Positions 5,685-22,802 of a stretch of DNA of 64,000 nucleotides are shown piece by piece. Numbering within the stretch: position 1 is the first letter of the stretch; each line of letters opens with the position of its first letter. Under the pieces are notes generated by a model. That model was not told the origin of the DNA, made no database searches, and worked only from the letters and a program-made list of their open reading frames with translations. This DNA is from an uncultured Eubacteriales bacterium (GTDB lineage: Bacteria; Bacillota; Clostridia; Oscillospirales; Acutalibacteraceae), in the NCBI GenBank assembly GCA_934511365.1, contig CAKSWC010000003.1, positions 116,227 to 180,226 on the forward strand, written 5' to 3'. The position numbers and the translations under genes are program-made.

Positions 5685-5712
5685 TGGTCCGAGTGTTCAT
5701 AACGGACTTATG
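5685..5712. repeat. Left junction of the integrated element (attL-like): 11-bp direct repeat of the tRNA-Pro 3' end plus 22-bp terminal inverted repeat
   Basis: tggtccgagtg (5685-5695) is identical to 22726-22736. gagtgttcataacggacttatg (5691-5712) is the reverse complement of 22700-22721 with 21 of 22 matching. Confidence 0.55.
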
Positions 5713-5762
5713 AAAAACTCAGGTTTTATCGGCAGTTGCACACATTTCTCGCTCGCACATTT

Positions 5763-5791
5763 GTGGTTTATTCAATTTCTTCCTATAATAT
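5763..5791 (+). promoter_or_regulatory. Sigma-A-like promoter for tnpW/tnpV (TTGTGG-17-TATAAT)
   Basis: The element ttgtggtttattcaatttcttcctataat lies about 30 nt upstream of the RBS AAGGAGG. Confidence 0.4.
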
Positions 5792-5824
5792 GGACGTAAA
5801 ATACAAGCCAAGGAGGAAATGACT

Positions 5825-6004
5825 ATGAGAAATCCAAAATACCATCTGTATCTAACATCCGATGAACGGCGCACGGTTATCAACAGCCTGATTGATTTGA
5901 GAAATGAACTCATTTCTCAAGGTAGGTATACTGACATTGTTGACGAGCTGTTAATCAAGCTCACAAAAGCAAGAATCAAGAAAATAGAGATCAAGGAGGT
6001 CTGA
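5825..6004 (+). CDS. Small TnpW-family protein found in Tn4451-like elements
   Basis: MRNPKYHLYLTSDERRTVINSLIDLRNELISQGRYTD resembles the small proteins that pair with TnpV in clostridial serine-recombinase elements. AGGAGG is present, and the second ATG (5825) has the better spacing. Confidence 0.45.
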   Translation: MRNPKYHLYLTSDERRTVINSLIDLRNELISQGRYTDIVDELLIKLTKARIKKIEIKEV

Positions 6005-6007
6005 ATT

Positions 6008-6364
6008 ATGGCAACAAAGATTACATACACACAGCAGGGTGACTGTCTTCTTCCCAATTTAAAATTGCCCGAACAGCCAAAGGTTGAAATAGGTATTTGG
6101 GGCAAGCGGCATTTGAGATACCTTAAAAATCATCATCCAATTATTTACACGAATCTTCTAACAAGTTGTAAGCTCACTGCTTATCTTGCTGATATTGATA
6201 AAGAAGCGAATGAAATGTTCGACAGACTAGTGCGTCAAATTTCCAAGAAGGAAAGCGTTACCGAAAAACTCAAAGCAGAGAATCAAATGCTGTGGGTGCG
6301 GGAAATGAATAATATACGCAATCGAGTAGAAGGAATCATCTATCAAGAAATTATATTTACATAA
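6008..6364 (+). CDS. TnpV-family protein
   Basis: MATKITYTQQGDCLLPNLKLPEQ...IGIWGKRHLRYLKNHH...YTNLLTSCKLTAYLADID...LKAENQMLWVREMNNIRNR matches the TnpV family remembered from Tn4451/Tn4453. AGGAGG sits 8 nt upstream of the ATG. Confidence 0.6.
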   Translation: MATKITYTQQGDCLLPNLKLPEQPKVEIGIWGKRHLRYLKNHHPIIYTNLLTSCKLTAYLADIDKEANEMFDRLVRQISKKESVTEKLKAENQMLWVREMNNIRNRVEGIIYQEIIFT

Positions 6365-6457
6365 AAAGCCAACAGCTGATGTGATTATAAAACCACATCA
6401 GCTGTTTTTCTGCTTTTTGATTTTGATTATTACTTGCTTTTTTTAGTAAGCAAATGA

Positions 6458-7669
6458 CTATGCATAATTCATCTCGATGCCTTGTAGAACAGCATCGAAG
6501 TTGTTTTCAGGGATTCCCTCAAAATAATCAGTAGAAAAACCCGTATCTAAAACATACATAAAGGCATCAAAACTATATAAAGCTGGAGCATCATCAATAT
6601 CTAGAATATTCCTTCTAATGTGATCGGTTTTAGCTATTAGACACGTATACTGAAAAGCTGGTTCAATTCTTCTTGTGTTTCCTCCCGGATGTGCTTCTTG
6701 CATATGTTGAGCAGTTGATAAAGCTATAAGATTTTCAACATACATAGCGATTTCAGGGAATCGGCTTTGAGGGAATATGTGATGTATTGCAGACGCATTT
6801 TGGCCAATAGAATATCTATCTCGAACTTCGGGTTCACCATCAAAGTATGTATTGATAAAGTATCTTAGGTTTCTCATTGCTCGACTTACTTGGTAATCAT
6901 AGGTTTCACTTACGGTGTTTACTCCACGATAGTCCCCACGAGCAACATTTTTATCTTTACCAGTAAGATCATCATACCAGTTAGTTTTATTATATACTAT
7001 ATCGCTAAATGTAATGATATTTGGAGAAATACGACCTCTAATTGTTCCGTGCTTATGATATTTGCAAGCTAATTGGTTAAGGACTTTTATGAAGATTCTA
7101 TCTGCTTCTCGTTTTGTGTTTATAGGAGTATATGTAAAACAAAACTGCTCAAATCTATCTTTTACAATGTCATACCATTCTTCTGTCTGCTCGTCAAAGA
7201 ACGATGCAAATCCATCCCACAAGCCACTATCCTGTAGTGTTTTTTCGATGTACATACACATAAAATCAAAAGCATTTCTTTCACGCAACGCTACGAACTC
7301 TAACACATCAATGTTTTCAATGTAGAATTGAATAGTATTACCTCGACGTCTTTCAGATAATACCCCGGCAGCGGAAAGAAGTTTGAGAGGTTGCCTGAAG
7401 AATTTGTTGTATTCGTCAACCGTACTTCTTGTAGTGGGATCTGGTTTACCAAACAAACGCATTACATTCTCGATTGAATATTCTCTATGCCAAATTTGCG
7501 GCGATTCAAAGGGAATGGTACCACCTGACTGAAGATAATCCACTATGCAATCAGCGACAAAGCACACCGTATCAAATGCACATTTTTGATCTATCCAACG
7601 TCCATTTCCGGTTCTTCGAACATCATAATTATGCTCATCGAAAAACTGTCTCAATAAACCAATAGTCAT
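6458..7669 (-). CDS. Putative restriction endonuclease with an HNH-like motif (the REase half of the RM pair)
   Basis: Its start overlaps the stop of the MTase gene (7666-7669), suggesting translational coupling. The C-terminal motif AIHHIFPQSRFPEIAMYVENLIALSTAQH fits the HNH pattern (HH...N...H). No other family is recognisable. Confidence 0.4.
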   Translation of the reverse strand: MTIGLLRQFFDEHNYDVRRTGNGRWIDQKCAFDTVCFVADCIVDYLQSGGTIPFESPQIWHREYSIENVMRLFGKPDPTTRSTVDEYNKFFRQPLKLLSAAGVLSERRRGNTIQFYIENIDVLEFVALRERNAFDFMCMYIEKTLQDSGLWDGFASFFDEQTEEWYDIVKDRFEQFCFTYTPINTKREADRIFIKVLNQLACKYHKHGTIRGRISPNIITFSDIVYNKTNWYDDLTGKDKNVARGDYRGVNTVSETYDYQVSRAMRNLRYFINTYFDGEPEVRDRYSIGQNASAIHHIFPQSRFPEIAMYVENLIALSTAQHMQEAHPGGNTRRIEPAFQYTCLIAKTDHIRRNILDIDDAPALYSFDAFMYVLDTGFSTDYFEGIPENNFDAVLQGIEMNYA

Positions 7670-10182
7670 TTTTTCACCCCATAAAAGAAAACACTTTTTG
7701 AATCAATATTAATTGATTGAGTTGAAAGGTTTCTAGCTATTTGATAAAACTTGCGATATTTTTCTGTTGCAAAAAAACTGATTTGAATTTGAGTTAGTTT
7801 CATTTGCTGTTTTGGTATTAGCACTGCAACTGATCCATCAGGCACAAGCCCAGTTTTATTGCAAATTACACGTGGATTATATGTCATATTTGGTGTTAAG
7901 TATACATTTAAATCATCAATATACTTTGCAACAGCAAAATCCTGACATATTTCAGGTTCAATAAATGAATCATAACCTTCTATACTTAAAATTGAACCAT
8001 CATCTTGTATGTTACGTGCTTTTATAACTCTTAATGAACCTTTTTTTCTTTCGGATGTTGTGTTCTTTTTAGTAATTTGTCTGTCTCTAAAAACATCAAA
8101 CACATCCAACTTTAATTCTTCAGCAACAGCATCAAAATCGTTATTTCGATATATGATGAAATAAGGGAAACATGTGTCTGTGATATAACTCTGTTTCTGG
8201 GTGATTCTAAAATTATACTTCATATTATATACAAAGGTATCTGCAGGTTTTTTTCTGTTTCTTACAACTAAACACATTGTTTCAATAGATAATCCGCTGA
8301 AACCATACCGTCCAAAATCAATAATACTTTCTATTTTTTTGCTTCTGAGATAATCTCTTGTTTGATCAAACTCTCCGGATGATAAAAGCGTTTTGTTCAA
8401 TACGAGCGCAGTGCAATCTGAAACTCTCATACACTTCTCTAAAAACATTTCTGAAAGATTCTTTGTTACTGTATTTACATTTTGAGATATACTTTGAAGA
8501 ACGTCTGTAGAGGGATTCTTCAATTTTGAATATGGTGGATTTCCTATTGCTAGATCGTATTCTCTATCAGGTTCATATGTTAAAAAGTTTTGATGAAAAA
8601 TCCTAATAGTAAAATTTACAGGTATTTCTATTTTATTAAGAAGTAGTTTAAGAGTAGCTATGCTATCTGCGTCAATTTCTACTAAGTCAATGTTTACTTG
8701 TTTTGTTCCTTCATATCTTTTGATAATAAACGGGATAAAACCTCCTGCTCCTACAGACGGTTCAAGAATGGATATTTCATCTTTTTTGAAATCTGGTAGG
8801 ACATCAACTATTTCGTTTACAATGAATTTATTTGTATAGTAAGCTGAATTTTCCTCACGCTTAGCGTTACACAATTCTACTACACGCTGTAATTCTGGAA
8901 GCTCTAATTGTTCAGGATTATCAATAATAAACTGATTCAACGCTTCTCTTGAATCCAGCGAGTACCGAACAACGAAGCGATTAATATCAGTAGGAGTAAT
9001 TTTTTTCCTTGTGAGTTCTTTCTTGATTTTGGATGCAATCTGCCGCATGATTATAGTAGGAACAGCTTCACCTATGCATTGACGTATATTTACTTCGTTT
9101 TCCTTATATATTTTCCTCTTTTCTCCTTCTGATAATTCGTTAAGCTGATCAAGCGAGTAATCAACCCAACGAAACTCAGCGGGAATATTCATCATTTCCA
9201 TAAGTTCCCTTATAGAGAAAACACGATCTTCAACAGGGTGAACTGTATTCTGTGCAGCTAGCTGATCGTTTCTGGTATGAATACACTGAACAAATCTATC
9301 CCATTTTTGACGAGTATATTTATCTCGATTTTTCTTTACATTCTCTACGATTTCGCCATTTATTATTCTGTGAGGACGGTTTTTAGGGTTAGCATTATCA
9401 AAAGCAGATTCCCCTTCTTTGAGATTATGAATCCAATCCCTCATTTTTGTGTCATAAGTTCTAAATGCATGATAGAAGTCGTTTGCTGATATTTCGCCCC
9501 ATTGAAGCTCTGCATATTTCCCATCCCCAATTACTTCTCTCAAAGTTTTCTCACTTGTAAACTCTGGAAATAAATCATATGGAGTAAAGGTGTTGCGATA
9601 CTCTTTGTCTATTCCGATAACCAATGTCCTTGTACGAGAAGAATTTGCTCCGTAGTTCATAAAATTCAATACTTTGCCGGTAATAATATAATCTTTTCCT
9701 AGCGTATCCCGAATAAAGTCTCCAATACGAACTAAGTCATCATTAGGGGTTATACAAAATGTCTTCTGAAAGGCTTGAACATTTTCAAAAATAAAAATTC
9801 TAGGTTTAATACGATTAATGATTTCAACAGATTCAACTACCAAACTGTTCCTATTAATGTCAGACTTATTCTTTTTGTGATTGATAACCGAAATACCTTG
9901 GCAGGGAGGAGTAGCTATTACTACGTCAACACGATCATTGCCACGATGTTTCCACGCATCAATTTCCGCATATATTTTATTCTTCACCTCATCTTTTGTA
10001 ATATCACCGTCGATATATCCAGTATCATACTCACATTTTTTGTTATACTTCTGAACTTCTAGACGCCGATTAATTAATTCATTTGTAAGGATACATTGAT
10101 AGTCCTCTTGCTTAAACCCATAGCAGCCCACACCAGCTGAACTGAAAAGGCTAATATATGTTAAGCTTTTATCTTTTAGCAT
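7666..10182 (-). CDS. Bifunctional DNA methyltransferase: N-terminal C5-cytosine MTase fused to a C-terminal gamma-class N6-adenine MTase
   Basis: The N-terminal half has m5C motifs I LFSSAGVGCYGF, IV PPCQGISVINHKK, VI ENV (FIFENVQAF) and a Q/R-rich motif VIII. The C-terminal half has m6A motif I ILEPSVGAGGFIPFI and motif IV NPPY (AIGNPPYSKL), followed by a roughly 250-aa probable target-recognition domain. Confidence 0.8.
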   Translation of the reverse strand: MLKDKSLTYISLFSSAGVGCYGFKQEDYQCILTNELINRRLEVQKYNKKCEYDTGYIDGDITKDEVKNKIYAEIDAWKHRGNDRVDVVIATPPCQGISVINHKKNKSDINRNSLVVESVEIINRIKPRIFIFENVQAFQKTFCITPNDDLVRIGDFIRDTLGKDYIITGKVLNFMNYGANSSRTRTLVIGIDKEYRNTFTPYDLFPEFTSEKTLREVIGDGKYAELQWGEISANDFYHAFRTYDTKMRDWIHNLKEGESAFDNANPKNRPHRIINGEIVENVKKNRDKYTRQKWDRFVQCIHTRNDQLAAQNTVHPVEDRVFSIRELMEMMNIPAEFRWVDYSLDQLNELSEGEKRKIYKENEVNIRQCIGEAVPTIIMRQIASKIKKELTRKKITPTDINRFVVRYSLDSREALNQFIIDNPEQLELPELQRVVELCNAKREENSAYYTNKFIVNEIVDVLPDFKKDEISILEPSVGAGGFIPFIIKRYEGTKQVNIDLVEIDADSIATLKLLLNKIEIPVNFTIRIFHQNFLTYEPDREYDLAIGNPPYSKLKNPSTDVLQSISQNVNTVTKNLSEMFLEKCMRVSDCTALVLNKTLLSSGEFDQTRDYLRSKKIESIIDFGRYGFSGLSIETMCLVVRNRKKPADTFVYNMKYNFRITQKQSYITDTCFPYFIIYRNNDFDAVAEELKLDVFDVFRDRQITKKNTTSERKKGSLRVIKARNIQDDGSILSIEGYDSFIEPEICQDFAVAKYIDDLNVYLTPNMTYNPRVICNKTGLVPDGSVAVLIPKQQMKLTQIQISFFATEKYRKFYQIARNLSTQSINIDSKSVFFYGVKK

Positions 10183-10218
10183 AACTATACTCCTAACGGC
10201 TGAAAATAGTACAAGGAT

Positions 10219-10247
10219 ATTATAGCAGAATAATCAATATTTTTCAA
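10219..10247 (-). promoter_or_regulatory. Minus-strand promoter (TTGAAA-17-TATAAT) for the MTase/REase operon
   Basis: On the minus strand the sequence reads ttgaaaaatattgattattctgctataat, about 35 nt upstream of the MTase start. Confidence 0.35.
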
Positions 10248-10303
10248 ATGAATGATTACACATTTTTTATGAACACGTGTTTTAAGTGCTCATAAAATAC
10301 TAT

Positions 10304-13300
10304 TTAGTATCCTCTCAGTATTTCTCTTATTTCTACATCTTTAGCATACAGATTCAAGTTGTCTATCTTATCTTTGATATATTGTTTGTGTTCCAAATAC
10401 TCTATGCCGTGTATTTCTTGGGATAATTTGTTCAAGAATTCAATTTTATTATGAATCAATGGGACCTCGCTACCTGACCAAGAACAAAAACTTGAAAACA
10501 ATGGAAGACCTTTAAAGTTTTCTATGCTTTTATCACACTCCAGATAGAGTTTGATGTACGTGATTCTTTGAGCATCTGTCATTTTTGATATGGAATCAAA
10601 AAGGCTCCTCATATATATGTCGTTCGAATAATACTTTTTTATAAAATTGCAAAGAAAAGCATTAACCTTTTCTTTGTCTTTATAAGCATTTATTACATCA
10701 AAGAATTCTGTTAATTCATAGTGAGGATAATCAATTCTTTCTTTAATGACATCGGCAATATGTTCAAATGAAGCGCAAAACTCATCTGTTTCAAACAACT
10801 TAGTTATATGATCTGAATGATCCCTAAAATCACGATGCTTTTGTTTGATTATTGTAAATAAATAATTATCTAGAAAAGCTTTATTATTTTCAAATAATAT
10901 TTTAAAGTATAGACCGTGATAATCAAAGTATCTTTCATAGGATAACTCAAACAGATAAATTTGCTCTAATAAATCCATTTTAGTTGAAAACAATTCAAGC
11001 ACATCGGAAACAGGGGTTATTCCATCGTGAAAAAGAAAGCTAAAATAAATATGGACAATAAATGGACTTGCTTGTTTTTTGTTTAGAATAATTTTACAAG
11101 TTTTAATAAAGATATCGGGATCTATAGATTTGAACTTTGTAACAAAAACTATTCTTCTAAAGCCAGACGAAGTAATCGCTTTATCTGAATCATCGAGAAG
11201 AAAAGAATAAAAATCTTCAATGGTATTTTTCTGTATCTTATCATTCGGAAAATGATAAAAGTAAAAATAAATCCATTCGTTTTTCTGAGTGTATTCATTC
11301 GCTTTGAGTAATCGTAATACATCTTCAGGCTCCATTAAGCTAAACAAGTACTCAATAATTTTTGTTGGAGAGAGTTTGGCTGGTGTATCGACTTTAAAAT
11401 AATACTCTACTGTCTCTACAAAATAGATTTTGTATTCATATAGAATATCAAATAGAAGACTTAATCCTTCTGATATTTCATATTTATTATTAATGCAAGA
11501 TTCATTACAAACATCAATTATCGAACAAATTGCAGAAAAATCAGCATTTCTAATCATTTCTTTAATTTTGCCCTTACGGACGATGAGTTCATCATCAAAC
11601 TCTTTATATTTTAGCTTATTCTCACCTTTGATTGTTTTATATATTTTAAGGATATACGAAGATAAATAATTCTTAACAAGCGATTGGTCAATAAACTTTT
11701 CTAGATCGCTCTCCCTCAAAAAAGCTATATAATTATCAACAAGAATACAATCTTCGAGATTGTCCGAATTAAATGAAGAGTCAATTAATCTATAAATAAA
11801 TGGGCAATCCGTTTCAATAATCTGATTGCTTTCGTCTGCTCCATCGCCGTATTCTCTTAATATGTCACGAATACATATTTTTGAATCCTGAGTTAGACAT
11901 ATTTCATATAGTAATGTCCATACTTTTTTTCTTAGATTTACAATCAGCTCACCTCCACGTATGGTAATATAATTAATTGTAAATGATCTTTCTCCGTTCG
12001 ATTCTGTCCATTCAAATCGGAATTTTAAAAGGTGTTTAGCAACATCAAAAAACAGATATGTTACAGCTTCGTTTGTCCAGTTTTCAGAATATCCTTTCAG
12101 CTTTTCGAGTAAAAGATTTTCAACACGATACTCAAATCTGTCGGAATACTTATTGAACACTAAACGCTGCTTTATTATTGCATAAAACTGTTCGTATAAA
12201 TCCGGTCTTTTCTTATAATATAATAAAAGCAAATCTAATGCTTCAGAATAATTATCACATTGATAAAAACCACCAAGTATTTCAATTACATCATCAGTGA
12301 TAGATTCCGATTGTTTTTCTTTTGATAAATTTTTGTTAAATGGCCTTTCTTCTGATTCATCAATTATTCCTTTAAGAATCAGAAGAGTAGCAGTTTCATT
12401 AACTGGATAAAATGCCTTTACATAATCAAAGAAAACAGATGGATCGTTTTCGGCTAATTCATCCCATACTTTACTTATTTCTTGATTAACATAAGCTATC
12501 ATTTCATCAGAGGAAAAGGATATGGTTAAAACATTTACAGACGTTATTGTTTTTGATTGATTGACAGGGAAGTAAACTTTAATGGCATCAGAAAGAAGGA
12601 TCAGTTTTTTATCAAAAAATACATATTTCAGAATATAGTTGGATAAGCACTGTTCTGAAATTTTTACTGCCTTTTTAGCATAGATATCAATTAGCTCGTA
12701 TGAATGAAGTTTATAAATACTTTCAATAAAGGTTTCTTTGCTAATATGAGAAACGGATAGTAAAGGTTCAATAAAATCCAAATTATCAATATGAAATGCG
12801 TCAACAAAAGCAACTATTCCAAAAGTAATAATTAAATCTTTTTCATCACACAATTTATACTCTTCAATAACCCGACCATAATAATTTTCATATAACTTGG
12901 ACACATCTGCTAATGAAGCTAAAGCGTTTTCTCTTCGTGCTGTTATTCCGGCAATCATAGCTATGCGGGCGTTTCCGTTTGATATTTCAGATATTCTTTT
13001 AAGATAATGCTGATTTTTAATACCAAGGTTAACTTTGATAATCTCTTCAATCTTTTCTTTATCAAATGGCTTAACTTTTATTATTCCATACCTTGCAAAC
13101 TCCATTATTTTTTTATGGACTTCATTGAGTGCGTAATCTCTTACGGTAATAATTATTTTAACAATAATTCCATTTTCTTTTTTTAATAAGTATTGCAAAA
13201 TATGTGACAATCCAGCAATTTGGTTTGCGTCATCAACAAAAAGTAAATATTTGCCAGGATGATTTATATGCATTTGAAGTTCTTCATATATAGGAAGCGC

Positions 13301-14023
13301 ATTGTCCCTTATACATAGCAGAGTTTCTCCTTGTTCGGAGCTGCGATTTTTAGCGAATTCAACTGCTAATCTTGTTTTTCCTGTTCCTGCGGTACCTGAT
13401 ATTACTGCGACATCATATTCTTCTAATACTTCATCAAGCTTTTTTATTTCATCTTCTCGATACAGAAATTCGTTATCTAATGGTGCCGAAAAAGCTGATG
13501 AATCATTTTGTTTAATAAAATCCTCTATGCTAAATATCTGGTTTGTATCATAAGATATTTGCAAATAATCTTTTGCTAAATCTCTTCTTTCGGAGAAAAG
13601 ATGATTGGCGATTCTATCTATTCCCCACATATTAAACACAATACTCTTCTCTTCACACATTTCACAAAACTCTTTATGAACCGCAGGTTTTAAATTTGAG
13701 GATGTATGAAAGTATATGATTTCTGATATATCTTTACTATCAATGCCGGTTTCACTTGAATTTAAGCATTTTTGGATATCATCAGTAATCTTTTTACGAA
13801 GTCCTGTTTGCTGTGTTGTATATTCAACAAAAACATATTTGTTATCCTCATTGATACAATACGTGTCAGGAGTTCCTAGAGTCGTTTTTTGAGTTCCCGA
13901 TTGGCTGCCTAGTGAAACAAAATTAGAGTATCCTAATGAATATAGTATTTGATCGCAAATGTTTTGAAAAGTCCCTTGATCCAATTCTAATATTTTCTGT
14001 TTGATTGTATTAATTATCGCCAT
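10304..14023 (-). CDS. Large STAND-like P-loop NTPase (N-terminal nuclease-like domain, central NTPase, long helical C-terminus); candidate defence protein
   Basis: Walker A VISGTAGTGKTRLAVEF and Walker B YLLFVDDANQ lie near residues 205-270. The N-terminal roughly 170 aa contain GTPDTYCINEDNKYVFVEYTT, a PD-(D/E)xK-like core. About 900 aa of alpha-helical-looking sequence follow. The probable start is the ATG at 14023 with GAGGTG upstream (the ORF track begins at GTG 14032). Confidence 0.5.
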   Translation of the reverse strand: MAIINTIKQKILELDQGTFQNICDQILYSLGYSNFVSLGSQSGTQKTTLGTPDTYCINEDNKYVFVEYTTQQTGLRKKITDDIQKCLNSSETGIDSKDISEIIYFHTSSNLKPAVHKEFCEMCEEKSIVFNMWGIDRIANHLFSERRDLAKDYLQISYDTNQIFSIEDFIKQNDSSAFSAPLDNEFLYREDEIKKLDEVLEEYDVAVISGTAGTGKTRLAVEFAKNRSSEQGETLLCIRDNALPIYEELQMHINHPGKYLLFVDDANQIAGLSHILQYLLKKENGIIVKIIITVRDYALNEVHKKIMEFARYGIIKVKPFDKEKIEEIIKVNLGIKNQHYLKRISEISNGNARIAMIAGITARRENALASLADVSKLYENYYGRVIEEYKLCDEKDLIITFGIVAFVDAFHIDNLDFIEPLLSVSHISKETFIESIYKLHSYELIDIYAKKAVKISEQCLSNYILKYVFFDKKLILLSDAIKVYFPVNQSKTITSVNVLTISFSSDEMIAYVNQEISKVWDELAENDPSVFFDYVKAFYPVNETATLLILKGIIDESEERPFNKNLSKEKQSESITDDVIEILGGFYQCDNYSEALDLLLLYYKKRPDLYEQFYAIIKQRLVFNKYSDRFEYRVENLLLEKLKGYSENWTNEAVTYLFFDVAKHLLKFRFEWTESNGERSFTINYITIRGGELIVNLRKKVWTLLYEICLTQDSKICIRDILREYGDGADESNQIIETDCPFIYRLIDSSFNSDNLEDCILVDNYIAFLRESDLEKFIDQSLVKNYLSSYILKIYKTIKGENKLKYKEFDDELIVRKGKIKEMIRNADFSAICSIIDVCNESCINNKYEISEGLSLLFDILYEYKIYFVETVEYYFKVDTPAKLSPTKIIEYLFSLMEPEDVLRLLKANEYTQKNEWIYFYFYHFPNDKIQKNTIEDFYSFLLDDSDKAITSSGFRRIVFVTKFKSIDPDIFIKTCKIILNKKQASPFIVHIYFSFLFHDGITPVSDVLELFSTKMDLLEQIYLFELSYERYFDYHGLYFKILFENNKAFLDNYLFTIIKQKHRDFRDHSDHITKLFETDEFCASFEHIADVIKERIDYPHYELTEFFDVINAYKDKEKVNAFLCNFIKKYYSNDIYMRSLFDSISKMTDAQRITYIKLYLECDKSIENFKGLPLFSSFCSWSGSEVPLIHNKIEFLNKLSQEIHGIEYLEHKQYIKDKIDNLNLYAKDVEIREILRGY

Positions 14024-14056
14024 ATATTTCACCTCGTTTGAATCTGTTTTGTTTTA

Positions 14057-14974
14057 TTAAATTATATCATTATCTTTTTGTTCCCGCAACAAGTATAACA
14101 GTTTAAAACCAATCTTTTCTATCGCCTTTTCACAAACTCTCTTAGCCGTACTCGCATTACTAAACCCGTGATTGGTAGCGATGTCGGTATAAGGAAGAGG
14201 TTTGGTTGGCTTTTCTTTCGGCTTGCCATTTTCGTCTAAATCATTCTTGTCAGCGTAGCGAGTGCTGAAACACTCCGGGCAAAAGCCGAGGTGCTGGGCG
14301 AGCATTATTTTTTCTGTGTATTCCAAGCTGTCATAGGCTTCATACAGTTTATCATAAAGCTCCTGCTTGAAATAGATATTTTCATGATTGAGTGAGGAAT
14401 CGGGAAGAAGAAAATTTGTTGTCTGTTCGTCGTCCTCATCGTTACTCTGAACATCTACATAGTTTTCAGTAAGAATACCGGCTTCAATGATAGACTTTGT
14501 TTTATCATAGCTTTCACCGATTTGCGCTGCAACCTGAGAAATGGTTTCCTCCGTAAATTCACCGCCTGAATGATTGAAAATATCCATCACTTTACGAAGT
14601 CGGGCATATTCAAATTCGCTCTGCACGGAATAGCCCGTCCGCATTGTGCGGATATAGGTATGCGCCTCACGCTCCATATACCTCTGAGCATACGGCAGAA
14701 AAGGAGCTATGGAAATATCGTATTTCATCAGAGCCTTACATAAGCCTGTTACAAGGCTTTGCTTTATATCGGCAAAATGTTCTTCCATTGAGTATTTATT
14801 CCTAAAAAACTTCGCCTTTTCATTTAACGACGGCTCGTAATAGTGTAGGAACCAATAGAAATAATTGTCATCGCCGGTCTGGATATACTGCCAAATATAC
14901 TCCTGCAAATCCCATTCAGGCGGTGGCGGAGTAATGCGGTATATTTCAAATTCTTTTTTCTCGATATGGCTCAC
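14057..14974 (-). CDS. Hypothetical protein, possibly a sigma-70-family (ECF-like) regulator
   Basis: YEPSLNEKAKFFRNKYSMEEHFADIKQSLVTGLCKAL looks like sigma region 2, and the C-terminal segment STAKRVCEKAIEKIGFKLL looks like a region-4 HTH. The stop/start overlaps the upstream gene (ATGA at 14971-14974). Family assignment is tentative. Confidence 0.35.
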   Translation of the reverse strand: MSHIEKKEFEIYRITPPPPEWDLQEYIWQYIQTGDDNYFYWFLHYYEPSLNEKAKFFRNKYSMEEHFADIKQSLVTGLCKALMKYDISIAPFLPYAQRYMEREAHTYIRTMRTGYSVQSEFEYARLRKVMDIFNHSGGEFTEETISQVAAQIGESYDKTKSIIEAGILTENYVDVQSNDEDDEQTTNFLLPDSSLNHENIYFKQELYDKLYEAYDSLEYTEKIMLAQHLGFCPECFSTRYADKNDLDENGKPKEKPTKPLPYTDIATNHGFSNASTAKRVCEKAIEKIGFKLLYLLREQKDNDII

Positions 14975-16116
14975 TTTTGCTTGATTCTCCTGTCCGTTTC
15001 TCTATACAAATTCTCACGCTTCATATCCATTTTAAATTGACCGTTAGCGTAGTTGTCATCATACTTTGCTTTTTGCCAATACTCTTTAGCGACTTTCAGC
15101 GCCATTGCAGCAAACTCTGCTGTAATGGTGCTTCTTTTTTGTTCTACACGAATTGCAGAGCAACGGCTCTTGTAAATTGGATTGATAGGGTTACCTTCGG
15201 AAAGCTCCTTTTCCTTCATCCTCGCCGCATATTTTCGGCAGGAAATTGTTTTTCCTTTCAGCGTATAGGGCGCAATACCGTTGCAATACACCTGCCGCCT
15301 TGCAGAAGTCATCAGGAAATAGCGCTTGCAGATCGGACACCTTTTCGGATAATGACCGTAGTACAAGCCCTCAAAAAAATCCGTGAGGACAAAGCTGTAG
15401 TACTTGTCAAAAAACATTCTTCTCGCCGTAATAATCGTTTTGCTTTTATCCGTTTTACGCATAGCAACATACTCGGATGTCATATAGAGCTTTTCGTTGC
15501 CGAATATATCCAATGCAATCGGTAATAGGTGCGGCTCGTCAAAGCATTCCGCTTCATCAAGTCTGTTACAAAACTCAGTTAAGCCCTCAAATGCTTCTCT
15601 CATATCGATGCTGATACGATCATAGAAAGCCAGTGTTGTCATCATATCATTAAGTAGGTTGTCCGCTGTTTTTTGCTGAACTTTATCTATTTCAATCGGG
15701 AGCAAATCCAAAGCAGATTCATTGATTCCCATAGCTAATATTTGAGCCTTTGCATTGAAATACTCTCGGATAAATTCAGCGTTGTTCTCTGTGAAAAGTT
15801 CAGCTATTCTAATACACTCTGCTTCAACATCCAGCTTAGTGAACGGTTGCAGTTTAGGCAAGGTTTTTAAGATTTGGTGGATCTCCCACCCGGATCGTAA
15901 AACATCAGTGTTATCAAGATAACCGGCAGAGATCGTATCGTATAAATGCCAGCTGTATTGTTTGTATATAGCCAACCTAGCCGCCGTATCGTCCTTATAG
16001 TATTGATTCAAAAGGTGCGTAGCGAACGTACCTGCAGGATAAGTTTTATTGCCGATCCGTATTCTTCCGTCACGAAAATCGGCGCTGAAAAAGCTGATTT
16101 TTTCCAAAATCAACAC
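14971..16116 (-). CDS. Hypothetical protein with a C-terminal Cys cluster (CPICKRY...CNG...C)
   Basis: A long ORF and the first gene of the minus-strand cargo operon. The C-terminal third carries a zinc-ribbon-like CxxC...C...C arrangement and a basic tail. I recognise no family. Confidence 0.5.
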   Translation of the reverse strand: MLILEKISFFSADFRDGRIRIGNKTYPAGTFATHLLNQYYKDDTAARLAIYKQYSWHLYDTISAGYLDNTDVLRSGWEIHQILKTLPKLQPFTKLDVEAECIRIAELFTENNAEFIREYFNAKAQILAMGINESALDLLPIEIDKVQQKTADNLLNDMMTTLAFYDRISIDMREAFEGLTEFCNRLDEAECFDEPHLLPIALDIFGNEKLYMTSEYVAMRKTDKSKTIITARRMFFDKYYSFVLTDFFEGLYYGHYPKRCPICKRYFLMTSARRQVYCNGIAPYTLKGKTISCRKYAARMKEKELSEGNPINPIYKSRCSAIRVEQKRSTITAEFAAMALKVAKEYWQKAKYDDNYANGQFKMDMKRENLYRETDRRIKQK

Positions 16117-16328
16117 CTCCTCACTATCAAGTCTACCAAAACAGGTGTCCCATAAAACTCCCTTTGCTCCGTTTTAGAAGAAATTTTTGAAAAATTTTTG
16201 AATTATTATTTTCCGTAATATAAAATTATCAGCTTGAATTCTGATTGTTCAGTATTCAAGCCGTTTTTTAGTGTTTTCTTTTTGATTTTCACTATGTTTT
16301 CTTAAAACCCTAAGTTTTCGGATTTTCG

Positions 16329-16377
16329 TGTATTTAATACAGTAGAGGGACGAAAAGCCCTCCAAAATACACGAAAG
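16329..16377. repeat. Nested palindrome in the divergent promoter region (12-bp inverted repeat enclosing GAGGG...CCCTC)
   Basis: tttcgtgtattt (16329-16340) pairs with aaatacacgaaa (16366-16377) as perfect inverted repeats, flanking gagggacgaaaagccctc. Confidence 0.4.
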
Positions 16378-16389
16378 GAGGAACAAGCT

Positions 16390-16626
16390 ATGGTGCTGAA
16401 AATTACCGAAGAGCTGTCCGACAGAGTAAACCGCATTGTCCGTCATTCGTGCTGCAACTGCATTGACGACAACTGCCTGTTGCTCGACTACGGCGAAGAA
16501 CACAGCTGCGTGCAGCTGATCAGCAAGTACGGCATTTACTGCAACTATCTTTTGAAATGCATATTGCCTGCTCTCCCAAAACTCTACGGCGACATACTCG
16601 CCTACAACGAAAAACTGAAAGGATGA
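16390..16626 (+). CDS. Small Cys-rich protein (cysteine-rich VLP-like) upstream of parM
   Basis: The 78-aa product has eight Cys (HSCCNCIDDNCLLLDYGEEHSCVQ...CNYLLKCILPALPK). GGAGG lies upstream, and the gene ends 4 nt before parM. Confidence 0.4.
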   Translation: MVLKITEELSDRVNRIVRHSCCNCIDDNCLLLDYGEEHSCVQLISKYGIYCNYLLKCILPALPKLYGDILAYNEKLKG

Positions 16627-16630
16627 TTTT

Positions 16631-17566
16631 ATGAAAACACTAAACAATTTTAAGATTATCGGTATCGACCACGGTTACGGCAACATCAAAACCGCTAACC
16701 ATTGTTTTAAGACCGGTATAACCACCCACGACAGTGAACCGCTGTTTACAAAGGATATGCTAACCTACAACGGCAAGTATTATCTGATAGGCGAAGGACA
16801 CAAAGAGTTTCTGCCCGAAAAGCAGAATGATGAGGATTATTATATCCTCACACTCGCCGCTATCTCAACCGAGCTTTCGGACGAAGGGCTGACCGAAGCG
16901 GATGTGATTATCGCCGCAGGTTTGCCTTTAACTTGGACAAGCGGACAGAAAGCGGATTTTGCCGCTTATCTGTCAAAGAGCAAAGAGGTAGCGTTCACTT
17001 TTCGTAATGTAGAGTATCATATCCGAATCTGTGATGTAAAAATCTATCCGCAGGGATATTCTGCGGTCGTGCCTATCAAGTCTACGCTCAAAGGATTGAG
17101 TATGGTAGCCGATATCGGCAACGGTACGATGAACACACTCTACCTTGTCAACGGCAAGCCGCAGAGCGGTAAGATGTTCACTGAGAAGTTTGGCACTTAT
17201 CAATGCACTCTTGCTATTCGTGAGGGCTTTATGCGTAAGACGCGCAGAGAGTTGAACGACTATCTTATCGACGAGGTGTTGCAGACAGGCATGTCGGATA
17301 TTCCAGATTCCGATTTGGAGATCATCACTGCTATTGCGGAGGAATATGTTGCCGAGATTTTCCGCCGCTTGCGTGAACACGGCTATGATGAAAGCACGAT
17401 GAAGCTCTACGTCTGCGGTGGCGGAGGTTGCCTGATCAAGAATTTCTATCACGGCAATCTCGACCGTGTAAAGTTCATTGACGATATCTGCGCTGCCGCT
17501 AAAGGCTATGAATATCTTGCAGACGTTTATCTGAGAGCCGAGGCGAAGAATGAAGGACGTGTATAA
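16631..17566 (+). CDS. parM: ParM/StbA-family actin-like segregation ATPase
   Basis: Actin-fold motifs are present: phosphate-1 IIGIDHGYGNIKT, phosphate-2 VADIGNGTMN and adenosine YVCGGGG. Confidence 0.75.
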   Translation: MKTLNNFKIIGIDHGYGNIKTANHCFKTGITTHDSEPLFTKDMLTYNGKYYLIGEGHKEFLPEKQNDEDYYILTLAAISTELSDEGLTEADVIIAAGLPLTWTSGQKADFAAYLSKSKEVAFTFRNVEYHIRICDVKIYPQGYSAVVPIKSTLKGLSMVADIGNGTMNTLYLVNGKPQSGKMFTEKFGTYQCTLAIREGFMRKTRRELNDYLIDEVLQTGMSDIPDSDLEIITAIAEEYVAEIFRRLREHGYDESTMKLYVCGGGGCLIKNFYHGNLDRVKFIDDICAAAKGYEYLADVYLRAEAKNEGRV

Positions 17567-17567
17567 A

Positions 17568-17876
17568 ATGACAGTACGCTTTGACCTAACCGACGCCCGA
17601 GAGCGTGCTCTAGCAGAATATATGCAGACGCTTGACGTAAAGAAGTATCAATCCCGCAATCAGTTTGTGTTAGATGCGATTGCCGATTATGTAGATTTAC
17701 AATCGATCACCCGTGAACAGCACGAGGAGGATATCCGAAATATCATTCGTGAGGAAATGCGGGCTTGCTTTGCAGAAGCAAACTTCGCTCCGCAGGCTGT
17801 AAATCCTGCTTTAAGTGCAGACCAACAGGCGGAAGCCGAGCAGGATATTTTGGACGACCTCAAACTATTTGATTGA
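17568..17876 (+). CDS. Ribbon-helix-helix protein, putative ParR-like partner of ParM
   Basis: MTVRFDLTDARERALAEYMQ has the beta-strand-then-helix N-terminus typical of RHH proteins. It lies immediately downstream of parM, with its start 2 nt after the parM stop. Confidence 0.4.
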   Translation: MTVRFDLTDARERALAEYMQTLDVKKYQSRNQFVLDAIADYVDLQSITREQHEEDIRNIIREEMRACFAEANFAPQAVNPALSADQQAEAEQDILDDLKLFD

Positions 17877-17879
17877 CGG

Positions 17880-18117
17880 CACAATGACGGCAAATTTCAA
17901 GACCGATATTAAAATTGACGGCAAAATGCCGTCATATCAAGATAGTATTTTAATCAACAGCATAAGGCACAGAAGAACGGTTGAAATTAACACTCCGTGA
18001 CTGTGTCTTATACTGTAGCAAGCAGGGAATTTGTACGGCAAATTCCAAATACAACAGCTCCAAAGCTGTTGTAAATCTTTAGGGACACCCTAACACCCGA
18101 AGAAAGAAGGTAATATT
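17880..18117. promoter_or_regulatory. Candidate oriT/regulatory region upstream of mobC
   Basis: Contains several perfect inverted repeats: TGACGGCAaaaTGCCGTCA (17925-17943), ACAACAGCTccaaAGCTGTTGT (18053-18074) and GGAATTTGtacggcAAATTCC. tgacggcaaa is also a direct repeat. Confidence 0.3.
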
Positions 18118-18476
18118 TTTGAACGATAAAAATGCAAGAATCGAGCTGCGAGTTACGCAGTCCGAGAAAAAGAAGATAGCCCGGCTCGCCGAGAGCTGCG
18201 GCTTATCTCAATCCGAATATATCAGACAAAGGACATTGGGCTATGCGCCGAGGACAGTGCAACCTGATGTCTTTTTTTGATTTCTACCAAACGCTCTGCC
18301 GTTTGTGTGACGAGGTTGCCGATAAGGTATCACCTGAAACTGAACGAAAGCTGCTTGAAGTCGTAGACGAAATCCAACAGCGCCTACTTCTGCCGGAGAA
18401 ATCCTCTGCCAAGCAAATCTGTAAGGAGGTAACGACGTGGCAACAACAGGCTTCTGGCCCGTCAAAGGACGGCTAA
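18118..18476 (+). pseudogene. mobC: MobC-family relaxosome accessory gene, split by a frameshift at a T7 tract
   Basis: The TTG start at 18118 (RBS GAAGGT) gives LNDKNARIELRVTQSEKKKIARLAESCGLSQSEYIRQRTLG..., a MobC RHH N-terminus. The frame ends at 18279 immediately after gtcttttttt. Reading with one T fewer joins it to the 18243..18476 ORF, for a total of about 120 aa. Confidence 0.5.
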
Positions 18477-19837
18477 AAGATGTTATCAATTACGCTGAAA
18501 ATCCTGATAAAACTATCGAGCGCAAATATCTTGATGATGACTTAGCTGCCGCTCTCAATTACGTTGAGAACAGCGACAAAACCGACCAAACAATGTACGT
18601 CAGTGGAATAAACTGTCCGAAGAAAAGAGCTTACGAGCAGATGATGACCACAAAGCGACGTTTCGGCAAGCTCGGCGGAAATGTAGCGTATCACGGTTAT
18701 CAGAGCTTTCAGGCAGGAGAAGTCACGCCCGAAGAAGCGCACCAAATCGGCATTGAAACCGCCAAGCAAATGTGGGGTAATGATTATGAGATAGTTGTTA
18801 CGACACATCTGAATACGGCAAACCTACACAATCATATCGTCGTAAATAGTGTATCGTTCCGCACCGGACGGAAGTTTGAAAATCATATTTCCGACCACTA
18901 CAAGCTGCGTGAGATTTCCGACGAGGTCTGTCGTGAGCACGGAAAATCTGTAATAGAAAACGCTCCGTTCTACGGCGGCGACAAGGCGTATTGGGTACGC
19001 AAGAGCGGACGAATACCGCACAAGGATATGCTGCGGCAAGATGTTGATGAAGCCTTAGCCAATACGATCAAGCCGTTTGATTTTGAATTATATCTTCGCT
19101 CGCTCGGCTATCAGTTTGTGCGGACTTTTAAATATCAGCATCCTTCCGTGATCGCTCCTGACTGGCTGAAACCTGTCAGATTAAGCAGTCTTGGCAAGGA
19201 TTACTCCAGAGAAGCGATACTCAGACGGCAGCAATCTCAGCGTGAGGATAAATACTTCGTGGATTTCTATTCCTATACGCCGAAATCTTATTATCAGCGC
19301 CAACCGCTGATAGTGAGAATCAGGGATTTTGAGAAAAGAACAGAACCCGATGTTATCACGGCGCTGTTTGACCTGATTATCACGATTGCCAAGCTCATCA
19401 CAGGCAACAATGTCCAAAAGAGAGATTACCGTCCGGTATCACCTGAGCTGCGGGCAGAAATCAGAAATCTCGACCGAACGCTGGCGGAATATCATTTTCT
19501 CCGTGACCACAACGTGGAATGTGCAGAGGATTTTGTGTCTTGCCGAAAGGAAATCGCCGAGCAAATCAAGGCTTATGAAACCGAGCGACAGCACATCCGC
19601 AACCGAATCCGCAGAGCTAAATCACCCGAAGAAAATAATTCTCTTAAAGAACAATGTAGAAAAATCACAAAAAAGCTGACACCCTTGCGTAAGCAGTTCA
19701 TTATCTGCGGGCGCATTGAAAACAAAGTGCTTCGACTCCGTGCTTTGATCGAACAGGAAAAGCAGCTGGAGCAAGGCAGATACAAGTACAAATATTATCA
19801 CCAAAATAAAACGAAACAAAGGAGTTATGAACGATGA
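18437..19837 (+). CDS. Relaxase/mobilization nuclease (MobA/VirD2 family)
   Basis: Has the three-His motif HLNTANLHNHIVVNSV and the expected N-terminal relaxase region (INYAENPDKT...). It overlaps the mobC end. Confidence 0.8.
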   Translation: MATTGFWPVKGRLKDVINYAENPDKTIERKYLDDDLAAALNYVENSDKTDQTMYVSGINCPKKRAYEQMMTTKRRFGKLGGNVAYHGYQSFQAGEVTPEEAHQIGIETAKQMWGNDYEIVVTTHLNTANLHNHIVVNSVSFRTGRKFENHISDHYKLREISDEVCREHGKSVIENAPFYGGDKAYWVRKSGRIPHKDMLRQDVDEALANTIKPFDFELYLRSLGYQFVRTFKYQHPSVIAPDWLKPVRLSSLGKDYSREAILRRQQSQREDKYFVDFYSYTPKSYYQRQPLIVRIRDFEKRTEPDVITALFDLIITIAKLITGNNVQKRDYRPVSPELRAEIRNLDRTLAEYHFLRDHNVECAEDFVSCRKEIAEQIKAYETERQHIRNRIRRAKSPEENNSLKEQCRKITKKLTPLRKQFIICGRIENKVLRLRALIEQEKQLEQGRYKYKYYHQNKTKQRSYER

Positions 19838-20681
19838 CCAATATATCAATCAACAAATTACACGAATTCAGAGACCACCCGTATCAGGTGCTCGACAATG
19901 AGGAGATGAACAGCTTAATCGAGAGCGTTCAGCAGCAGGGCATTATGACGCCGCTGATTGTACGTCCGTTAGAGGACACAACAGATGAATATGAAATCAT
20001 ATCGGGACACCGCCGCTTTCGTGCGGCACAGAAGGCAGGGCTCACAGAAGTCCCTGCCTTTATTCGTCCCGTCAGCCGTGACGAAGCAGCGATTATGGTG
20101 GTGGACAGCAATCTCCACAGGGAGCATCTTCTGCCGTCGGAAAAGGCGTTTGCTTACAAGCTGAAAGCCGAAGCGCTCAAGCATCAGGGACAGCGTACTG
20201 ATCTCACTTCGGAGCAACTTGCACCGAAGTTATCGACTGAGCTGATTGCCGAACAGGAGGAAACCAGCAAAGATACAGTAAAACGCTATATCCGTCTGAC
20301 AAAGCTTATCCCCGATATTCTCAAAATGGTCGATGAGCAGCGTATAGCTTTCAGTGTCGGCGTGGAGCTATCTTATCTAACCGAAAATGAGCAGCAGGAT
20401 TTGTTTGAAGCTATCGAGTTGTAGGACAAAACGCCCTCGCTCTCACAGGCGATACAAATGAAAAAGCTCTCTCAGGCAGGCAAACTTGACAGCGAAACCA
20501 TATCAAAAATCATATCCGAGGAAAAACCGAATCAGCGTGAGAAAATTAGTTTTCAAATTGAAAAGCTGACTAAATTCTTTCCGAAAAGTTACACCCCGAG
20601 AGATATCGAACGCAAAATAATCAAGCTGATTGAGGACGACTATCGTAGCCGTCAGCGAAACAAAAACAGGGAGGAAAGATA

Positions 20682-20682
<1 letters not shown>
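19834..20682 (+). pseudogene. ParB/Srx-like nuclease-domain gene interrupted by an in-frame TAG at 20422-20424
   Basis: The ParB motif ISGHRRFRAAQKAG is present. ORF 19834..20424 and ORF 20458..20682 are in the same frame and separated by a single amber codon. Read through, the product would be about 282 aa. Confidence 0.5.
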
Positions 20683-22620
<1,938 letters not shown>

Positions 22621-22687
22621 GACAAAAGGCGAGCAGGCACAAAACCTGCTCACCACATACAAACCGGATGAAATTGAATAAAAGAAT

Positions 22688-22736
22688 GAGTGTCCATAAC
22701 ATAAATCCGTTATGAACACTCATACTGGTCCGAGTG
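22688..22736. repeat. Right junction (attR-like): palindromic site plus the tRNA 3' end
   Basis: gagtgtccataac-ataaatcc-gttatgaacactc is an imperfect palindrome at 22688-22721. The 22-bp terminal inverted repeat occupies 22700-22721, followed by atac and then tggtccgagtg (22726-22736), which is the 3' end of the tRNA. Confidence 0.5.
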
Positions 22737-22802
22737 ACAGGACTTGAACCTGCGGCCTCTTGACCCCCAGTCAAGCGCGCTACCAAGCTGCGCTACACCC
22801 GG
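22726..22802 (-). tRNA. tRNA-Pro (anticodon GGG)
   Basis: I folded it by hand on the minus strand. The 7-bp acceptor stem includes one G-U pair; U8 A9 are present; the D arm is GCGC/AGCTTGGTA/GCGC; the anticodon stem is CTTGA/TCAAG with loop CTGGGGG (U33, anticodon GGG); the T arm is GCAGG-TTCAAGT-CCTGT; a 3' CCA is encoded. Confidence 0.85.

Follow-up and report, generated by a model that had tools for sequence, protein, structure and literature searches.

Do three closely spaced genes on a mobile element of an uncultured Eubacteriales bacterium (Acutalibacteraceae) act together as one defence system? We addressed this question for a stretch of 64,000 nucleotides (hereafter the window; GenBank assembly GCA_934511365.1, contig CAKSWC010000003.1, positions 116,227 to 180,226 of the forward strand). 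A first-pass annotation had grouped three genes of the minus strand, encoding a DUF6076 protein, a sigma-70-like protein and a large STAND NTPase with an N-terminal nuclease-like domain, into a candidate undescribed defence system. Our analysis indicates that the trio is probably composite, consisting of a gene pair from the backbone of the carrier element and an independent cargo cassette with an Avs-like NTPase gene. The DUF6076 and sigma-like genes are conserved backbone of the element and not partners of the NTPase, and the NTPase gene is independent of both.

The distribution of the three genes was analyzed from both sides. A search with the sigma-like gene, in which one genome per species was scanned, returned 19 loci. 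Wherever enough sequence was available, the genes for DUF6076, sigma, Cys_rich_VLP, ALP, relaxase, ParB and recombinase occurred together, at 75-97% identity. The NTPase gene stood beside the pair in a single one of the 19 loci (L017). Elsewhere, the gene after sigma encoded a methylase or R subunit of a type I restriction-modification (RM) system (L016, L018), ABC transporters (L021, L031), AdhE (L024), an ATPase_2/DUF234 protein (L026) or an RNase H-RnlA/HEPN toxin (L029). The commonest sigma variant (368 index blocks) was followed by a helix-turn-helix (HTH) gene, a complete type I RM system and SLATT_4. Thus, the pair follows the backbone, whatever the cargo.

A family-alignment search with the NTPase gave 202 metagenomic relatives, 80 of which were kept; 59 of these 80 had at least 1.5 kb of upstream sequence. 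Sigma and DUF6076 genes adjoined the NTPase gene in three of the 80 loci (L054, L055 and L061, 99%-identical copies). Every co-occurrence of all three genes falls within one element backbone, and with counts of 1/19 and 3/80 the trio was not seen to co-occur independently of its carrier. It is not conserved as a unit, the outcome that the first-pass annotation had itself named as speaking against a three-gene system. The immediate neighbours of the NTPase gene, 238 open reading frames (ORFs), fell into 181 clusters at 70% identity. None of these was universal, and the NTPase gene is therefore without an obligate partner.

Three candidate partners were considered and rejected. A conserved small upstream partner is not apparent, as the small ORFs in L001, L040 and L041 are mutually unrelated and the one in L001 is chimeric. 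RhuM (PADLOC candidate PDC-S05), rejected as an obligate partner, follows the NTPase gene in 14 of the 80 loci, solely in a branch of ~40% identity and not in the window clade. In the same branch (L035, L044-L046, L049-L050 and 32 of L054-L133), the NTPase gene comes shortly after an RNA uracil-5 methyltransferase gene. Defence genes can intervene between the two, and the methyltransferase gene is absent from the window clade. This site looks like, and is better read as, an insertion or defence-island hotspot beside a housekeeping gene.

Close copies of the NTPase gene occur without the pair. A 93%-identical copy, present on 22 contigs (L001), lies in a tyrosine-integrase element, and the block that it shares with the window is exactly 10300-14236. 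The trace of the sigma gene in L001 is limited to the last 60 codons, fused into an ORF of 98 amino acids. Copies with 88% identity have a serine-recombinase fragment directly upstream.

Two small ORFs in this tyrosine-integrase element may be noted. The ORF of 98 amino acids (L001, 9694-9990), upstream of the NTPase gene, is chimeric, with its last 60 residues 80% identical to the sigma-like C-terminus; it is a recombination scar showing the origin of the cassette. Two genes upstream of the NTPase gene, another small ORF (L001, 9408-9701; L003, 860-1180) carries ESPACLNEMGAAWV, a stretch that we take to resemble TIR-like domains.

The edges of the cassette can be located in the window. DNA homology to elements lacking the NTPase gene ends at 14115-14133, inside the final 20-25 codons of the sigma gene. 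Accordingly, most sigma homologues have 292-297 amino acids, and the versions with 305 amino acids are those adjoining the NTPase. The segment from 14189 to 14024 (at least 166 bp) is kept upstream of every NTPase copy of the window clade, in three different upstream contexts; within this 5' flank, at 14121-14092, lies a promoter-like site that has an extended TG. The NTPase cassette therefore probably carries a promoter and ribosome-binding site of its own. The G+C content also steps within the supposed operon, from 30.0% in the NTPase gene to 41.0% in the sigma gene and 41.4% in the DUF6076 gene, with 44-49% in the other backbone genes.

All three ORFs were present as annotated (Table 1), the largest spanning 10304-14032 and encoding 1242 amino acids when read from a GTG. 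Its start is most likely the ATG at 14023, since a ribosome-binding site (GAGGTG) lies ahead of it and the resulting 1239 amino acids are the length of all close homologues. In this numbering, the motifs quoted in the first-pass annotation were found at residues 50-55 (GTPDTY), 64-70 (VFVEYTT), 210-217 (Walker A, GTAGTGKT) and 260-266 (Walker B, LLFVDDA). The annotated gap of 33 nt to the sigma gene holds solely with the ATG at 14023, not with the GTG at 14032. The 4-nt overlap of the other two genes had been given as ATGA; it reads GTGA. Through it, the DUF6076 gene is translationally coupled to the sigma gene, and it was always found with sigma and the backbone. It probably starts at TTG 16107, giving 378 amino acids as in L007. 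No terminator-like hairpin was found between the three genes; because of this, the close spacing is taken as real and co-transcription is plausible.

The two upstream genes had been described as untypical of any named system; they proved to be standard backbone genes of the mobile element. The protein of 381 amino acids matches Pfam PF19553 (DUF6076) with an E value of 3.9e-46 and 157.3 bits, against a gathering cut-off of 23.5, and the annotated cysteine cluster (CPICKRY...C...C) is present. A literature search found no paper on DUF6076. For the protein of 305 amino acids, possible sigma-70 region 2/4 character had been proposed. TIGR02937 does match with an E value of 4.6e-8, but at 32.9 bits the match stays below the cut-off of 42.9, and no Pfam match was obtained. 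Its homologues form 524 clusters, a few of which carry PF04542, and go by the JGI name 'sigma-70 family'.

The annotated location in a mobile element beside RM genes was borne out. In the window, uvrB and uvrA extend up to 5537 and are followed by an element of ~17 kb (~5685-22736), which adjoins uvrA and sits at the 3' end of a tRNA-Pro gene. It is bounded by a terminal inverted repeat of 22 nt, 95% complementary, and by an 11-nt direct repeat, TGGTCCGAGTG (Table 1). Its genes encode TnpV, a type II RM pair, the NTPase, the sigma-like and DUF6076 proteins, Cys_rich_VLP, a ParM-like ALP, a MOB relaxase, ParB and a TnpX-like recombinase. A segment of 12.5 kb (10300-22753) is ~90% identical to two Ruminococcus bromii loci (L007 and L008). 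There it lies between different flanking genes, and the element is therefore mobile, or was so until recently. Homology between the window and L007 starts at 5685 and ends at 22753; tnpV, at ~81% DNA identity, is common to the window, L001 and L007. With the recombinase, TnpV, the relaxase and the ends all found, sequence features class the carrier as an integrative mobilisable element of the Tn4451/Tn6104-6106 type.

The cargo slot of the element has the sigma/DUF6076 pair immediately upstream on one side and tnpV on the other, and its cassettes appear to be swapped by recombination events located near tnpV and in the 3'-terminal part of the sigma gene. A third cassette, exchanged independently of the NTPase, is formed by the type II RM pair, which has a promoter-like site of its own. 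Homology to L001 and L007 is lost 4 nt past the stop codon of the NTPase gene, and the 121-nt gap beyond this stop holds the best promoter match of the region. Among near-identical NTPase copies, the one in L054 is followed by the RM pair of the window, and those in L001, L007, L055 and L061 by XamI and an Eco57I-type methylase. In L134 (12988-15206), a shortened methylase without endonuclease follows the NTPase gene and is apparently degraded. The endonuclease gene of the window overlaps the methyltransferase gene by 4 nt, and the methyltransferase matches its PADLOC model over the full length with 888 bits. Pair, NTPase and RM genes are separate modules. The supposed operon marks where backbone and cargo join, and the region as a whole forms a small island of defence cargo in a mobile element rather than a system of three genes in one operon.

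Two further stretches were recorded. The RM cassette of L001 occupies 14173-16646. In the window, a divergent intergenic region of 273 bp (16117-16389) separates the DUF6076-sigma operon from the Cys_rich_VLP-ParM-relaxase-recombinase operon; it is AT-rich, has several weak promoter-like sites and is likely the regulatory hub of the element.

Table 1. Features of the carrier element and its cargo (window positions)
Feature	Position	Strand	Basis
NTPase, single-gene cargo cassette, 1239 aa	10304-14023 (incl. stop codon)	-	ORF; start and ribosome-binding site; homologues; G+C
PD-(D/E)xK (Mrr/FokI-like) fold domain, aa 1-160; non-canonical motif PD53, E67-x-T69, K78-x3-D82	13544-14023	-	
STAND NTPase module, aa 189-480	12584-13459	-	Walker A 13373-13396; Walker B 13226-13246
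C-terminal all-alpha solenoid, aa 481-1239, one beta-hairpin; presumed sensor	10307-12583	-	AF2 model; Foldseek
Conserved 5' flank of NTPase cassette	14024-14189	-	Overlaps final 44 codons of sigma gene
Divergent sigma-70-like protein, 305 aa, backbone gene	14057-14974	-	TIGR02937; homologues
DUF6076 protein, C-terminal four-Cys cluster, backbone gene	14971-16116	-	Pfam PF19553
Fused C5-cytosine and N6-adenine DNA methyltransferase, type II RM	7666-10182	-	Pfam DNA_methylase and Eco57I; PADLOC MTase_II PDLC03277
Type II restriction endonuclease	6458-7669	-	PADLOC REase_II PDLC03488, E 2e-120
Promoter-like site TTGAAA-17-TATAAT with TG, for RM cassette	10219-10247	-	11/12 consensus matches
TnpV, distal edge of cargo slot	6008-6364	+	Pfam PF14198, E 7e-46
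Divergent backbone genes: Cys_rich_VLP, ParM-like ALP, small ORF, relaxase, ParB, recombinase	16390-22620	+	Pfam; ORFs
TnpX-like large serine recombinase	20860-22620	+	Pfam Resolvase, Recombinase, Zn_ribbon_recom, DUF4368
Element left end: direct-repeat core TGGTCCGAGTG 5685-5695, inverted-repeat arm 5691-5712	5685-5712	.	Repeats
Element right end: inverted-repeat arm 22700-22721, direct-repeat copy 22726-22736	22700-22802	.	Repeats
tRNA-Pro(ggg), containing second direct-repeat copy	22726-22802	-	

The three genes might still be a transcription unit, though not a functional system, with the sigma operon of the element driving the downstream cargo and NTPase expression thus regulated by the element. 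We regard this as possible and on balance lean against it. Transcription could plausibly continue from the sigma operon into the NTPase gene, given that 33 nt lie between them and no terminator-like hairpin is present. Moreover, a large ORF on the same strand comes after sigma in 12 of the 12 backbone relatives with sequence there (in L021, L023 and L032 a short ORF on the opposite strand comes first), and the only strong promoter match belongs to the RM cassette further downstream. On the other hand, the cassette keeps its own 166-bp 5' flank with a promoter-like site where the operon is missing. The promoter scan of the region, with 44 sites against 46 expected from shuffled sequence, is not above expectation, which also counts against such a unit. 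Read-through is not required, because NTPase copies without the operon persist intact.

As an independent cassette, the NTPase belongs to a large family, with more than 1000 clusters at 50% identity, that is abundant in human-gut Clostridia. A word-indexed search gave 669 homologues, nearly all of 1239-1250 amino acids and aligned end to end. With the N-terminal 188 residues as query, 1066 cluster representatives at 50% identity were obtained, and the best 150 were almost all proteins of ~1240 amino acids with the same architecture. Full-length relatives at 25-27% identity were found on a Bacillus cereus megaplasmid (NZ_CP085502; L143) and on Leptospira interrogans plasmids including pLiSL23 (L144). 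In UniRef and at NCBI, the homologues (such as WP_040411443, WP_253021191 and WP_148603364) are named 'ATP-binding protein', 'hypothetical protein' or 'nSTAND3 domain-containing NTPase'.

The Avs/AVAST-like architecture proposed in the first-pass annotation was confirmed, with a nuclease-fold domain, a STAND NTPase and a long helical C-terminus in one polypeptide. The NTPase module is Pfam nSTAND3 (PF20720; residues 194-327, 29.4 bits against a cut-off of 27.2). In an alignment of 100 full-length family representatives, Walker A (GxxGxGKT), the DD of Walker B and the arginine of a sensor-1-like TVR motif (residues 293-295) were conserved to 99-100%. For structure prediction the protein was modelled in two pieces, residues 1-188 and 186-1239. 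The AlphaFold model of the larger piece (predicted local distance difference test score, pLDDT, 77) has an alpha/beta core with a P-loop, then a helical stretch of poor prediction quality and finally an all-alpha solenoid with a beta-hairpin. The solenoid comprises ~760 residues. When the model was compared with the PDB using Foldseek, Avs4 (8dgf_A) ranked first with an E value of 2.4e-8, followed by exportin-type solenoids. STAND proteins make up the fold matches, with Avs5 and Avs4 at the top. Within the protein, divergence is greatest in the solenoid, where the window clade and a distant branch are 29-36% identical, compared with 46-54% in the nuclease and NTPase portions. Such divergence is expected of a sensor, and the C-terminus is presumed to be one.

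The annotated N-terminal PD-(D/E)xK-like segment was borne out at the level of fold. The model of residues 1-188 (pLDDT 79; predicted template modelling score 0.73) has an alpha-beta-beta-beta-alpha-beta PD-(D/E)xK core, and the Avs4 nuclease is among the top three fold matches. Residues P52, D53, K78 and D82 are invariant in 100/100 representatives, and K46, which lies in a loop rich in Gly, is conserved to 93% across the family. The invariant PD53, K78 and D82 indicate a conserved active or binding site. The canonical D ... (D/E)-x-K motif is not present in the nuclease-fold domain of the family; judged by its residues, the site is conserved but non-canonical. The lysine and second acid may have been relocated to the helix after strand 3 (K78-x3-D82), possibly substituting for the canonical residues. 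Because the residues at the site are non-canonical, catalytic activity is only a candidate property.

Besides the backbone seen in the window, the NTPase gene was found in the tyrosine-integrase element, in defence islands and at the ends of prophage lysis modules. In Enterocloster asparagiformis it shares an island with genes for HamA/HamB (Hachiman), DndB, RhuM and a SAVED protein, and an integrase adjoins. A holin/endolysin module immediately precedes it in L041, L051 and the B. cereus plasmid, a position where prophage accessory genes are usually found; on the plasmid the module consists of a holin and a GH25 lysozyme, and a restriction endonuclease lies nearby. RM systems adjoin the gene in the window, in L001 and in L013, where it comes after a type IIG-like RM pair. 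Thus, defence-gene neighbours (RM, Hachiman, SAVED, RhuM, prophage ends) occur in many loci, as counted without a background control. A phage-borne origin of the gene was considered and rejected, as searches of viral contigs and phage genomes came back nearly or fully empty.

In the likely mechanism, outlined by analogy with Avs2, Avs3 and Avs4, the variable alpha-solenoid would bind a phage-encoded protein. Binding would release the autoinhibition of the nSTAND3-type NTPase and lead to ATP-dependent oligomerisation. The oligomer would in turn juxtapose the N-terminal PD-(D/E)xK-fold domains, resulting in indiscriminate DNA cutting and abortive infection.

Several observations weigh against this Avs-like reading. 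The position of the motif lysine (69) is Thr or Ser in 97 of the 100 representatives, and position 67 is Glu in 68, with Ala, Met, Val or Thr taking its place in about a third. For the Foldseek match to Avs4, the template modelling score is low (0.19), and generic solenoids score nearly as well. PADLOC gave no match to the NTPase (best PDC-S68, E value 0.0024, 13.7 bits; no AVAST model was listed), and nothing related emerged from sequence searches of the PDB, which includes chains of Avs3/4/5/7, whether the query was the single protein or the family profile. Some homologues (L040) are surrounded by housekeeping genes and lack defence neighbours. Viral contigs contain almost no members of the family (2 weak matches among 2.9 million), and none was found in deposited phage genomes. 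Finally, the defence role and the mechanism are ones that we infer by analogy, from architecture and neighbourhood. Note that PADLOC and NCBIfam scans with all three proteins yielded no defence-system assignment.

A more specific version of the Avs-like reading seems to us unlikely. It holds that the NTPase represents an Avs-type lineage with a rearranged active site and a new sensor specificity of the solenoid, and that the DUF6076-sigma pair is a generic driver of cassettes. If true, the lysine and the second acid would sit on the following helix (PD53 ... K78-x3-D82) and the canonical Glu would be dispensable. The solenoid would recognise a phage component so far linked to none of the Avs families, and the pair would switch on the defence cassette of the slot upon activation or new transfer of the element.

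It is rather improbable that the NTPase is not directed against phage and instead serves the element itself, through exclusion, competition or addiction, or is a DNA-binding STAND regulator with a catalytically dead nuclease fold. The missing canonical lysine and the loss of Glu67 in about a third of the representatives would fit such a role, as would the frequent location on integrative elements and plasmids, the great rarity in viral contigs and the lack of a match to any defence hidden Markov model (HMM). The invariance of PD53, K78 and D82 argues against it, as do the architecture and closest folds, which are those of Avs proteins, the positions after prophage lysis genes and in defence islands, and a Pfam search in which no HTH or other regulator domain was found in the NTPase.

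We give very little credence to the idea that the DUF6076, sigma-like and NTPase proteins form one three-component defence system, for example with sigma and a Zn-ribbon partner controlling or licensing the STAND nuclease: the genes share a strand, a 4-nt overlap and a 33-nt gap with no terminator-like hairpin, their arrangement recurs in L007, L008, L012, L017, L054, L055, L061 and L134-137, and some Avs genes have accessory genes, as in the KpAvs2 operon (PMC11564622), but co-occurrence has already largely refuted this reading, as all recurrences lie in one backbone whose pair also precedes unrelated cargo, the NTPase gene lacks the pair in 77 of the 80 metagenomic loci and in each of the ten further contexts analysed, the intact 93%- and 88%-identical copies have only a sigma 3' remnant upstream, and G+C content steps between sigma and the NTPase.

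With an independent NTPase cassette next to a backbone pair, a false lead is removed: the locus holds no new three-component system, and a single clonable NTPase gene remains. The defence type is also not undescribed, because the nuclease-STAND-sensor architecture is known from Avs2/3/4; only this NTPase family is uncharacterised. The 2023 PADLOC models miss the family, although it is common in gut Clostridia. A 2026 census (Lee et al.) distinguished 589 STAND clades, 198 of them defence-associated, with at least 90 sensor families, about twenty of which have been tested (PMC13581612), and our family very probably falls inside it. Its characterisation would add one sensor specificity to the growing Avs catalogue, and could reveal whether a PD-(D/E)xK domain is active when the motif lysine is missing. 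In addition, the comparison documents a cargo slot, flanked by the sigma gene and tnpV, in a Tn4451-like element that is widespread; RM systems, toxins, transporters and the NTPase are exchanged in this slot.

Among known mobile elements, the carrier is most readily compared with the clostridial class of Tn4451/Tn4453 and Tn6104-Tn6106, which occurs in C. difficile and shares with it a TnpX-like recombinase with DUF4368, TnpV, a Mob relaxase, sigma-factor-like genes and a variable accessory region (PMC3158075). Unlike Tn4451-type elements, that of the window adds ParB, a ParM-like ALP, Cys_rich_VLP and a DUF6076 partner for the sigma gene, and its cargo consists of defence genes, not catP.

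Among defence systems, Avs3 and Avs4 are phage-activated, non-specific DNA endonucleases, and the N-terminal nuclease of KpAvs2 is of the Mrr family (PMC11564622). The NTPase differs from Avs4 (EcAvs4-portal, PDB 8dgf) in being ~300 residues shorter, in belonging to the nSTAND3 clade, in being structurally closer to Avs5 and in having a nuclease domain without the canonical lysine; neither PADLOC models nor the PDB profile search revealed a relationship to Avs4 at the sequence level. Avs5 carries nSTAND3 (10.1101/2025.07.08.663546), and Avs5/AVAST type 5 (SIR2-STAND; PDB 9jap, 9nc9) resembles our protein in the clade of its NTPase module and in its close structure. The effector differs, being a nuclease-fold domain in the window and SIR2 in Avs5. 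No PADLOC model matched the NTPase (best E value 0.0024), in a searched set whose content of AVAST V models was unchecked. KpAvs2 shares the order of an N-terminal endonuclease, a STAND NTPase and a long C-terminal sensor, and aborts infection via DNA degradation (PMC11564622). Its operon has two accessory genes, whereas the NTPase of the window has none that is conserved and no sequence match to KpAvs2. By HMM match, the protein is not a member of the named families Avs1-Avs5. In conclusion, its architecture is that of Avs2/Avs4 and its NTPase clade that of Avs5, and on the strength of the predicted tripartite polypeptide and the intact NTPase motifs it would count as an Avs protein in the broad sense.

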